From a virus, in the IMG/VR virus record IMGVR_UViG_3300045988_048710: a DNA stretch of 41,570 nt; one strand, given 5' to 3'. Below the pieces are notes generated by a model. It saw nothing but the letters and a program-made list of their open reading frames with translations. It was not told the DNA's origin and ran no database searches. Shown here in pieces: positions 13,194-23,786 of the stretch. Numbering within the stretch: position 1 is the first letter of the stretch; each line of letters starts with the position of its first letter. Both the position numbers and the translations under genes were made by a program.

Positions 13194-16100
13194 TTATTTC
13201 CACTTGTCGATGTTATCCGAGTAGTATTTCGTTTTCTCCGATGTCGTCTTGTCCTTGTTCGTTCCTGCCTTATCGGACAGGTAGACGTAAAGCGTTACCA
13301 GCCGGTTTTTCATCTTGATGGCCTCGTTCGGATTCGTTTCCTTGAGCGCAAGGTAGGTGTTCTTGTATGTATCTGAGATTCCGCTGGAAATCGCTTTGTA
13401 ATCATTCCCCTGCGCCACTGCATCCTCAACAGCCTTCTTGTAGTCTCCACCGGATTCAAGCGCTGCTGTATAGACATCCAGCTTTGCCTGCCTCTTCGGT
13501 GTGTACTTGGTGGTCTTCTGCAGCACAGGGAGCTGCTCAATTGTCCGCCCAAGGAGCGTGTTGTAGATTGCCACCACGTCACGCTGCGCCGCATAGAGCG
13601 GATATCCGCTCAAATCCGAGAACGCCCTTGTGAGTGCTGCCACCTTTCCGTAGGTCGTCATCTTCTCGCTGGGATTTACGATTGCCTTTACCGCCTTGAA
13701 GAAGTTCTTCACGCCGGACATGGAAAGATCGCTGTCACTGCTGTACGTGCTTTCTCCGAGAACTGACTTCACGCCCTCCTTGGTAGCATCCCAATACTGA
13801 GCAACCATAGGAATATTACTGAGAAGATCCATGTTATCCACAAGATTTCCGTTTAAGAATTCCTTTAACTTGTCGCCGAAAGAAGCGTCTTCGTCCAGCC
13901 AGTTTCCGAAGCCCATAGCATCCATGAACCGTCTGAGGAAGTTTTTATCCTCGTCGTCCGGATCTCCTGCACTTCGAAATGCATCCGCGAAAGACATAGC
14001 TGCGGCATTTATCACATGTGTAATCAGAAGAACCGGAGCTGTGACTCTGACAAGATGAGCTTTTGCCTTCTTTACCTGCCGTTCGTCTTCTGCCTGACTG
14101 ATATCAATCATATCGCGGAGAATCATGTTGTAGGTTTTCACAGGCTCCGCCATGAATGCTGACATCATTCTGTTTTTTGTGTCCGGAGAGCGCATGAACT
14201 GCGATCTGGTTATGACACTGTCATAGACCTGCGTACGACGAACAATATCCGAGTACCTGTCATTCACAGCATCCTCAAATTCTTTGGTACCGATTTTGCC
14301 CTCACCAAGCTTGTCAACCTGTTCTGCGTAGACCGCACGATAGATTGCAGCCCACGTAATTTCATCTGCCTTGCTGGCCGGTTTTCCTGCAAAGTCAAGG
14401 ATCTTCTCTCTTGTCGTCTTTACTCCTGTGATTGTGCTGACAAGACTCTGCGTGATGTAGCCGTCAATGTTGCCCTGATTCTTCAGCCAGAATATATCCG
14501 ATGTCCGGTCTCTGAGCTCCGCAGCTTCCTTCCTGTACTTTCCTACTATTCCGGCATTCAGATATTCATAGGAAATCATTTCACCCGCACGGAAGATGGC
14601 TGTCGGCTGCTGTATAATTACACGTCCATTTCCAAGAGTAGCGGCAGTTTTCGCGTGCCCCGTCAACATATCATAGAAGTTGCCGCCGACAAAGCTGCTC
14701 TTTTCTCTGTCGTTGATCGACGAGATGAGCTTCACGAAATATTCCTGCCCCTTCTTTCCGTAGTAGTAATCAATCGCATCCTTTACAGAGTTTCGGAAAG
14801 CGAATTTCTGACCGTCCTCTCGCTCCACATACGCCTTTTCGTTGTAATTAAAGAAGCGAATGAGATCCTGAAGCGGAGCAGCCCACGCATGGTAGGTAGC
14901 CATCTGTGCCACATGGTCCACGTAGACCATAAAGATGTCTCTCAGAACCAGAGGGTTGTCTGCTTCTGGAGTAATGTCTTTGGTGAATCCGGAGTTCTTG
15001 ATCGCATTGATTGCTCCCTGCGTGACGTTGCTGTCCCTCGTGGCGATAGTGTTCTTGTCTGTCGTCATCGGGAAATAGTGCTCGTCAACAAACTTCTCGT
15101 ACCCGTACAGCTGCATACAAGTCTCGTTGCCCTGTTCCGCGCATTGATGTGCAAGATAATACTGCATAGCATCTGCCATCTGCTTCTGCTGCGGGGTCAG
15201 CGTGTCCGTAATTTCTTTGATCTGCTCATTTGTGAGGTGTACAGGGATCCTCTGACCGGATACCTTCTCACGATTGGACTCATCTGCAACAAAGCCCCCG
15301 ATCTTATGCTGCTGCGCATCCGGGCGCTTCGACAGCTCATACAGAGACATGATCTGTGTCGTTGTGAGATCGAGGCCATAGTAGTTCTTGGTCTCATTCA
15401 TCCAGCTTTCCATTTCTTTTTCAGTTGCAAGACGATCGCACACATCAGCCATATAATCCTGTGCCTGATGAATATCTCTCGACTTCTGGTCCTCCGCCCT
15501 ATAGAGCGTCTTTGTGATCGGATCCGTCTCTTTTCCACCGAAAATTCCATGGAAATATGTCTCTGCCACAGCATGGTCAAGCGTCAGTGTATCAACAAGC
15601 GTAGCCACCGGTTTAAAGTGCTCTCTTCTGCCCTTCACTCCACTTGTCGTGCGGTCCATTACCATGTGCGCAATATCAGAGACATGCTGCGAGGGCTTGG
15701 AATACATCCGATTTATCTGATTCACCGCATGCAGGACGTTTCGAACTACTTCATTCAACGTCCTCAGCTCACTCGAAGACAACTGCGCAATTGAGAGCAT
15801 ACCCTGATTATCTCTCAGAATTTTCCCCAATTTTTCCCCGAGTTCCTTGTCGAGTCCCTGCTTCAGTTCGCTCCGCTCAAACCAGTCATCGCTTTCATCT
15901 TGCTGATACAGATTCTGTACTGCCCAAAGCCTCTCCTGCCAGCTCTTATTCTCTGCAGATCCGAGGCCGTTTTCATCCATTGCCTTCTTGTACTGAGCAA
16001 TTGCATCCTCTCTGCTGTCTGCACGGATCGTCCTCCACTTGTAGGAGTAAGATCCATCCGCATTGATGTCTCTGCTCTCCAGTATGCGAATACTGAACTT

Positions 16101-23786: not shown

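Follow-up and report, generated by a model that had tools for sequence, protein, structure and literature searches.

A 3,530-residue gut-phage protein with conserved terminal modules and an exchangeable effector slot, a probable phage-type polyvalent protein

Polyvalent proteins were defined as a class in 2017 by Iyer, Burroughs, Anand, de Souza and Aravind (PMC5512222). There they are described as single huge chains of unrelated effectors (PBECR RNases, ADP-ribosyltransferases (ARTs), LPD domains), with genes in the virion block and mosaic orthologues. The same paper argues that the phage proteins are packaged and proposes that peptidase domains have a processing role. We report here on a giant gene in the viral genome IMGVR_UViG_3300045988_048710, a stretch of 41,570 nt referred to below as the window. 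Its 3,530-residue product is, we consider it likely, a phage-type polyvalent protein as Iyer et al. (2017) define the class, expressed late alongside the virion proteins of a gut phage of about 41 kb that is temperate and probably short-tailed, then packed into the capsid and injected. Prophages phi1 and phi4 of Clostridium clostridioforme LM41 carry an 8-kb open reading frame (ORF) that was noted in 2024, has similarity to LPD3 and was interpreted as a polyvalent protein (PMC11318856). In the temperate podovirus phi24B, a Stx phage, the 2,811-residue gp47 was found in virions by mass spectrometry, is unseen in the cryo-electron microscopy map and has been proposed to be an encapsidated ejection protein (bioRxiv 10.64898/2026.04.10.717836). 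The gp50 protein of phage N4, of about 3,500 residues, has a beads-on-a-string architecture, which its authors propose lets the protein pass a channel of about 35 Å (PMC13434306).

The window protein shares with the class of Iyer et al. the single huge chain of unrelated effectors, the virion-block gene and the mosaic orthologues. It differs in that the Pfam LPD, metallopeptidase (MPTase) and MuF models that came from that work hit none of its roughly 2,150 conserved residues, and its fixed layout of N-terminal module, slot and C-terminal module is not found described in the available passages of PMC5512222. The LM41 prophages, set alongside by description only, are likewise temperate gut Clostridia prophages of about 41 kb and predicted podoviruses; their ORF closes the structural region on its 3′ side, occupies about 20% of the genome and encodes about 2,700 residues, compared with 3,530 here (PMC11318856). 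Like phi24B gp47, the window protein is a giant protein of a temperate phage. The domains of gp47 are LPD5, LPD1, LPD38 and MuF-C, and the window protein showed none of these three LPDs; phi24B also has a Gram-negative host and a T=9 capsid. Being encapsidated and ejected, N4 gp50 provides the physical precedent for moving a protein of such size. It is, however, an RNA polymerase, for which the window protein gives no signal, and N4 is lytic on Gram-negative hosts.

A positional counterpart exists in the cultured Bacillus phage Page, whose gp20 (NC_022764; locus L007, 19786-24825) is likewise the final large gene of the virion block, with the holins and endolysin coming just after it. The Page head protein is 36% identical to that of the window. 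At 1,679 residues gp20 is half the size of the window protein, and Page has no annotated integrase. Annotated as hypothetical, gp20 contains LPD38 near its C-terminus (E 8e-28); this domain and the equivalent position indicate that Page also has an unrecognised polyvalent-type protein. No similarity between gp20 and the giant protein was detected by BLASTP or profile.

An earlier note on this DNA, made from the letters and their ORFs alone, had described one uninterrupted frame over a quarter of the genome, preceded closely by a low-complexity gene of 483 residues and followed by a strong terminator. These features stand. Positions 1-119 and 41452-41570 of the window are 100% identical over 119 nt, so the contig is circular and closed, with 41,451 bp of unique sequence; to judge by this circular-assembly overlap the genome looks complete. 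The giant ORF takes up 25.6% of it and its product is a single polypeptide of about 395 kDa. The stop codon of the 483-residue gene lies 9 nt before the giant ATG (10 nt in the note), a ribosome-binding site precedes the start and a terminator-like hairpin follows the stop codon (Table 1). Uninterrupted ORFs of 3,512-3,533 residues are present in four independent contigs, L001 from ENA and L004, L005 and L006 from IMG/VR, and every one of the 60 IMG/VR relatives whose ORF is uncut by a locus edge has a single unbroken ORF, of 2,467-4,222 residues. Comparison of the window with L005 and L006 gave a ratio of nonsynonymous to synonymous substitution rates (dN/dS) of 0.06-0.28 in each diverged segment and about 0.14 overall, indicating that the frame is under purifying selection. 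Since it is both intact in four independent contigs and under such selection, fusion during assembly does not explain the frame. The profile of phrog_22978, a PHROG of unknown function with 3,513 positions, spans residues 148-3477 (E 3e-265). The database entry A0A8S5N7P4, which is the best BFVD match of the C-terminal module, is 96% identical; a near-identical protein is therefore already present in UniProt.

Our assignment to the polyvalent class relies on domain content, gene position and mosaicism. Unrelated hallmark domains sit on one chain, PBECR5 (179 bits) and ART-PolyVal (56 bits), two families from polyvalent proteins that score above the curated Pfam cutoffs; in relatives the slot holds MuF_C, PBECR3 and LPD23. 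The phage has a portal and a terminase, the giant gene lies among virion genes and an integrase is present. The orthologues are mosaic, with swaps in L004, L001 and L002 and only 8-22% of relatives aligning in the slot. The earlier note's reading of the gene as a multi-effector cargo or polyvalent protein gains support from the two domains and from the virion-block position. Packaging in the virion and ejection itself we infer from gene position and precedent, that is from the argument of Iyer et al. for virion-block genes together with phi24B gp47 and N4 gp50.

An exhaustive HMMER search with residues 381-1260 yielded 509 cluster representatives (clustered at 50% identity) with an E-value of 1e-3 or better, 194 of them at 1e-10 or better. 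Most members are 2,500-4,500 residues long, and the relative position of the query match is constant among them. The family is carried by at least 346 IMG/VR contigs, most of which are 35-44 kb in length. For a conservation map, the 118 representatives of 2,400 residues or more were aligned to the residues of the window protein. Between residues 400 and 1250, 70-99% of these relatives align; the fraction drops to 8-22% over 1250-2000, rises to 30-55% over 2000-2200 (the ART region) and reaches 49-95%, mostly 75% or more, over 2200-3300, with its minimum at 2551-2650. The layout is therefore fixed: an N-terminal module (about 400-1250), a hypervariable slot (about 1250-2200) and a C-terminal part (about 2200-3530). 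Pfam families detected in 16 members were ART-PolyVal (6), PBECR3 (5), LPD23 (3), MuF_C (2) and PBECR5 (1). We also note among these 16 one weak match to Intein_splicing (E 8e-4) and, in another member, one to Tail_completion_gp17 (E 4e-4).

The slot is swapped by recombination between phages, as expected of an arms race. L004 is 94-100% identical to the window protein on either side of residues 1200-1500 and only about 20% inside (1300-1400), where it has a different LPD3-like cassette (E 1.3e-4). In L001, residues from about 1254 to 2010 are exchanged for about 930 residues without a Pfam family, and residues 2502-2798 are missing. The more distant L002 has MuF_C, ART and PBECR5 in another order, with MuF_C at the cassette slot. 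Between the window and L005/L006 the synonymous divergence (dS) is about 0 over residues 1200-2000 (about 17787-20186 in the window), compared with 0.6-0.77 in the conserved modules. The effector block thus seems to have been transferred recently from one phage backbone to another after the backbones had diverged. Cultured phages gave little: megablast against a cultured-phage collection found no match, and tblastn with residues 532-3530 returned three unannotated faecal-virome fragments as well as PBECR5-region matches in an Acinetobacter and a Bacteroides phage. On these results no cultured phage in that collection has the conserved modules.

Pfam was scanned twice, with the full-length protein and with 450-residue segments. 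Only PBECR5 passed in the full-length scan (residues 1481-1672, E 1.6e-51), which missed ART-PolyVal; the segment-wise search that the earlier note had suggested recovered it. Two segments picked out by eye in that note are thereby placed. The GGFPSPSIAIIRS ('GGFPSPS') segment corresponds to PBECR5, predicted to be an endoRNase that has the BECR fold and needs no metal, and the diphtheria-toxin-like YHGT/YFT signature is that of the ART-PolyVal domain. PBECR5, ART-PolyVal and LPD3 are all families defined from polyvalent proteins, and according to the defining paper (Iyer et al. 2017, PMC5512222) the PBECR active site combines a His of the N-terminal helix with a Ser/Thr, and the ART-PolyVal clade is H-Y-D, its His, Tyr and Asp lying in strands 1, 2 and 5 respectively. 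Among aligned PBECR5 copies H1494, in the N-terminal helix, is kept in 25 of 26 and T1556 in all 26. The pair fits the pattern of an active PBECR, the assignment of residues to structural elements being taken from the alignment. The ART-PolyVal domain likewise conforms to H-Y-D: H2042 is kept in 93 and D2150 in 94 of the 109 aligned copies, and the strand-2 Tyr is the YFT motif at about residue 2058, placed by eye from the alignment and varying between Y and F among relatives.

The remainder of the slot is less readily classified. The earlier note had listed an AT-rich inserted cassette; residues 1301-1400 indeed have a GC content of 0.40, and of 0.35 at third codon positions, compared with about 0.5 and 0.57 elsewhere, and coincide with the slot swapped in L004. 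An LPD3 match in this region (residues 1288-1379) is weak, at E 0.02 and below cutoff, and 8-18% of the 118 relatives align across the cassette (1266-1475). The module that follows PBECR5 (1680-2031) travels with it: residues 1482-2025, PBECR5 included, align to L002a with 33% identity over 563 positions, and about 20% of relatives align at 1680-2031.

Outside the conserved modules lie the first 380 residues, where between 2 and 69% of relatives align; the three KKKYG/FKKENSVDD repeats of the earlier note are present at about 150-350, and the first 100 residues are exchanged in L004 (27% identity). Residues 500-650 are the best-conserved part of the family. They fall within the Gly/Ala-rich hydrophobic stretches that had also been noted, which we place at about 400-660, with the top hydropathy peak at 630-648. 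Part A of the N-terminal module (381-929) has no Pfam match and is covered by phrog_22978 alone, as are residues 2200-2500 at the start of the conserved C-terminal part.

Part B of the N-terminal module (930-1265) contains an HExxE motif. In alignments of 61 and 22 sequences H1079 and E1080 are invariant, E1083 is near-invariant and Y1120, Y1124, E1138 and D1142 are conserved. The motif reads HExxE in the window and most family members, and HExxH in L002 and a few others. A zincin-like metallopeptidase is expected to have HExxH on a helix after a three-stranded sheet, plus a downstream Glu. The AlphaFold2 model of part B, a confident one (predicted local distance difference test (pLDDT) 82.5, predicted template modelling score (pTM) 0.81) has four short strands followed by the motif helix and would be compatible with a zincin-like core. 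No zincin was retrieved by Foldseek against the PDB, by profile search against the PDB or by the Pfam MPTase models. For this reason we put forward a derived zincin-like metallopeptidase as a hypothesis only; on the model, it is possible.

The C-terminal third, which the earlier note took to be globular, is a conserved and mostly helical part by AlphaFold2 and the conservation map. In its last module (2761-3530) K..QQP....R is invariant and TQVVD, RSQxMRS and AFMAEP are conserved; the AlphaFold2 model has pLDDT 70.7 and pTM 0.67. No Pfam family and no PDB fold corresponds to it (Foldseek best E 0.64). The structure prediction and Foldseek comparison that had been suggested were run on two modules, this one and part B, and neither has a PDB fold match (best E 0.64 and 0.38, TM-scores 0.16 or less). 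Against BFVD, 78 giant viral proteins match the C-terminal module at E<1e-3, each by its own C-terminal chunk; among the best 50 of these matches the query TM-score is mostly 0.45-0.67, with sequence identity down to 10-16%. The matched proteins carry names such as Nuclease, MuF C-terminal domain, PolyVal ART and LPD-containing. We considered LPD38, which Page gp20 and phi24B gp47 contain, as the identity of the module and rejected it, as hhalign gave a probability of 1% and none of 27 module sequences matches LPD38 in Pfam. Sequence and profile searches of the PDB with the whole protein and alignments A1, A2 and A3 returned nothing significant, NCBIfam gave no match, and segment-wise PHROG searches hit two families only, both of unknown function. 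In all, about 2,150 conserved residues are without a Pfam or PDB relative.

The C-terminal module lies at the extreme C-terminus in 112 of the 118 long relatives. In three distant relatives the C-terminal 930-1,030 residues or so are a separate ORF. L002 (2126-12805) is split into 2,613 and 934 residues; L008 (6-10068) has two ORFs with a 20-nt overlap; L009 (178-12507) has ORFs of 1,564, 1,515 and 1,033 residues, the last junction being an ATGA overlap. The ORF boundary maps to about residues 2660-2766 of the window protein. The module can therefore work as its own chain.

These observations suggest how the protein might act. A few copies would be packed inside the capsid. Together with the DNA or before it, they would be threaded out by way of the portal and the short tail as a loosely joined string of domains. 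The conserved end modules would provide encapsidation and translocation, possibly with membrane insertion. The HExxE domain could cut the protein into working pieces and so release the RNase and the ART. In the freshly infected cell the middle domains would then do their work, the RNase cutting host or defence RNAs and the ART modifying host proteins or nucleic acids. Such early action, ahead of any phage gene expression, would favour takeover of the cell or establishment of the prophage.

Several points weigh against this picture. The presence of the family in virions, and its ejection, are argued from context and precedent. No MuF/Phage_Mu_F or other known capsid-targeting domain was found in the window protein with Pfam, MuF_C being seen in relatives only (L002 and two of the 16 members). 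The roles given to the modules are guesses, because the conserved modules match nothing in the PDB or Pfam. The putative peptidase has HExxE and not the canonical HExxH, without a zincin fold match, and one or two strongly hydrophobic helices are weak backing for membrane insertion. The short-tail morphology is read from absent genes and a head-protein identity of 35-37%, and no further virion protein matches Page.

It is possible, though we lean against it, that the protein is mainly a structural ejection protein whose end modules build a conduit through the envelope (cf. T7 gp14-16, P22 gp7/16/20 and the phi24B gp47 proposal), the enzymes being passengers. This overlaps with delivery of effectors by a polyvalent protein and differs from it only in which function is essential. 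That the family keeps the conserved modules and not the enzymes fits such a conduit, as do the Gly/Ala-rich stretches and hydrophobic helices, the syntenic large gene of Page, the phi24B gp47 proposal and the lack of any other recognisable set of ejection proteins in the virion block, save the phrog_511 'internal virion protein' gene. On the other hand the protein has no fold or sequence likeness to solved structures in the PDB and no lytic transglycosylase or peptidoglycan hydrolase domain in Pfam, and its hydrophobic content is low for a membrane channel. We think it rather unlikely that the product is a polyprotein that is cut ahead of packaging or in its course, as P1 DdrB is reported to be, with its last 800 residues or so independent and its full chain never one working molecule. 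The separate, overlapping or closely spaced ORF for the C-terminal module in L002, L008 and L009, with three ORFs in L009, would agree with cutting, and so would the conserved HExxE/HExxH domain in the N-terminal module and the processing role proposed for peptidases of polyvalent proteins in PMC5512222. Yet all 60 uncut IMG/VR ORFs are fused, HExxE is not a proven peptidase motif and has no zincin fold match, and N4 gp50 is packaged unprocessed according to the same source.

The size of the protein matches that of N4 gp50, and about 1,300 residues of conserved C-terminal part have no assigned function. That the protein is an RNA polymerase packaged in the virion, of the N4 gp50 or crAss-like type and diverged past recognition, is nevertheless very improbable. 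No such family was found in Pfam, NCBIfam or PHROGs, no PDB match was obtained by sequence or profile, there is no DxDGD motif, and the C-terminal model is almost all helical without a PDB fold match (residues 1680-2031 and 2200-2700 lie outside the models). The absence of T7-like polymerase motifs reported by eye in the earlier note thus extends to families, PDB searches and folds. We further reason that the phage, being temperate with an integrase, can rely on the host polymerase. Long helical and Gly/Ala-rich stretches are also what a tape measure would have. A tape measure spans about 1.5 Å per residue, and 3,530 residues would set a tail of about 0.5 µm; tail tube, chaperone and sheath genes are lacking and no tape-measure family is matched. 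With these genes absent, and with frames intact in the four contigs and the 60 IMG/VR relatives at a dN/dS of about 0.14, a tape measure and an assembly or frameshift artefact are both excluded.

Some of this was known before: the class since 2017, a comparable 8-kb ORF in LM41 (PMC11318856), a PHROG and a near-identical UniProt entry. New here are an architecture shared across the family, a domain with an HExxE motif, a C-terminal module that can be separated, a partner gene conserved beside the giant gene, and the roughly 2,150 conserved residues without a Pfam or PDB relative, which are therefore clear targets for structural work. A bolder and decidedly tentative proposal is that the N-terminal module, the C-terminal helical module of about 800 residues and the 483-residue partner form an undescribed system for translocation and encapsidation, specific to a large group of phages of about 40 kb that includes human-gut phages, and serve as a standard carrier for exchangeable cassettes (RNases, ARTs, LPDs), with HExxE as a new cargo-releasing variant of metallopeptidase.

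It is predicted that, of all phage molecules, polyvalent proteins act first once a cell is infected, and to our knowledge almost none of them has been studied experimentally. The present family is abundant, with its 509 clusters and hundreds of IMG/VR contigs, and includes human-gut phages of hard-to-culture Oscillospiraceae. That about a quarter of a genome is spent on one gene implies a strong selective payoff. Fixed modules around a recombining slot offer a defined system in which to ask how a protein of about 400 kDa is packaged and passed through a short tail, what the RNase and the ART attack among host or defence components, and whether engineered cargo could be placed in the slot.

The genome around the giant gene was read from PHROG and Pfam scans of the ORFs; the virion genes lie on the minus strand, and coordinates are collected in Table 1. 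The giant gene sits inside the virion block, with tail-fibre-like genes on either side and the lysis genes next. In agreement with the earlier note, neither a tape measure nor a tail tube or sheath gene turned up in the PHROG and Pfam scans between the major head gene and the giant gene, and no chaperone gene either, two small ORFs there having been left unscanned or scanned with one library only. Among cultured phages, the head protein is closest to those of the Bacillus megaterium podophages Page, Pony and Pascal (35-37% identity); of 19 virion and lysis proteins of the window, only the head protein matched the Page genome by tblastn. From the absent genes and this distant likeness the phage is probably short-tailed. 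A related C-terminal fragment occurs on a contig of a Dysosmobacter segnis metagenome-assembled genome, and one database homolog is labelled Eubacteriales; the host is therefore likely to belong to the gut Oscillospiraceae/Eubacteriales. No tRNA or Rfam family was found within the window.

Table 1. Features of the giant gene and of the surrounding genome, in window coordinates
Feature	Residues	Coordinates	Strand	Basis or remark
Giant ORF, probable phage-type polyvalent protein		13194..23786	-	3,530 codons, ATG start; ORF listing and translation
AGGAG ribosome-binding site		23793..23797	-	6 nt (23787-23792) 5′ of the ATG at 23786; overlaps TAG stop of upstream gene
Intrinsic-terminator-like hairpin and T-run		13162..13188	-	Right after stop codon; 10-bp stem, 7 G-C pairs
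Charged low-complexity N-terminal region, three KKKYG/FKKENSVDD repeats	1-380	22647..23786	-	Poorly conserved
N-terminal conserved module part A, Gly/Ala-rich and hydrophobic stretches	381-929	21000..22646	-	70-99% of 118 relatives align
N-terminal conserved module part B, HExxE domain	930-1265	19992..20999	-	Conservation in 61 and 22 sequences
Variable cassette slot, AT-rich, weakly LPD3-like insert	1266-1475	19362..19991	-	LPD3 below cutoff
PBECR5 domain	1481-1679	18750..19346	-	Pfam PF18814, E 1.4e-52, 179 bits vs cutoff 25
Module travelling with PBECR5	1680-2031	17694..18749	-	No Pfam match
ART-PolyVal ADP-ribosyltransferase domain	2032-2190	17217..17693	-	Pfam PF18760, E 7.8e-15, 56.3 bits vs cutoff 31.2
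Start of conserved C-terminal part	2200-2500	16287..17189	-	80-92% of 118 relatives align
Less conserved insert, gene-split site in relatives	2501-2760	15507..16286	-	49-76% of relatives align; absent from L001
C-terminal module, mostly helical	2761-3530	13197..15506	-	Alignment A1 and AlphaFold2
483-residue partner gene, S/T/N/Q/G-rich, low-complexity		23796..25247	-	Immediately 5′ of giant gene
208-residue BppU_N-like gene, tail or baseplate-type		12501..13127	-	Pfam BppU_N 23.8 bits vs cutoff 23.1; directly 3′ of giant gene
Small and large terminase		37790-35954	-	PHROG/Pfam scans
Portal		35944-33941	-	PHROG/Pfam scans; small peptidase-like gene next
Major head protein (after a scaffold-position gene)		32684-31614	-	PHROG/Pfam scans
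669-residue gene			-	Match to phrog_511 'internal virion protein'; carries CBM_5_12 module
496-residue tail-fibre-like gene			-	After 669-residue gene; several small genes follow, then 483-residue gene
Holins and endolysin-like gene				After BppU_N-like gene; PHROG/Pfam scans
Integrase		6592-7614	+	Opposite strand to virion block; PHROG/Pfam scans

The genes next to the giant gene recur with it in relatives. Homologs of the 483-residue gene (E 5e-24 or better), for which Pfam and PHROG gave no match, end close 5′ of the giant start in 49 of 60 IMG/VR loci, the gap being within about 15 nt in most; the product could be a chaperone or a co-ejected protein. On the 3′ side, BppU_N-like homologs lie at a median of 38 nt from the giant stop codon in 27 of the 60 loci; the window's own copy also has weak tail-fibre PHROG matches.

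We note some further features of the genome. The 496-residue tail-fibre-like gene contains three tandem 120-nt repeats, hence 40-residue repeats, at 27471-27830 with 100%, 87% and 61% identity. Between the integrase and the lysis genes (7700-10900), ORFs compete on both strands; one of these, 8171-9505 on the plus strand with 444 residues, has no PHROG match. The early or regulatory part of the genome has a 42-nt tandem pair with 79% identity at 444-527, and at 39463-39717 two direct repeats of 50 nt that are 86% identical and separated by 205 nt.

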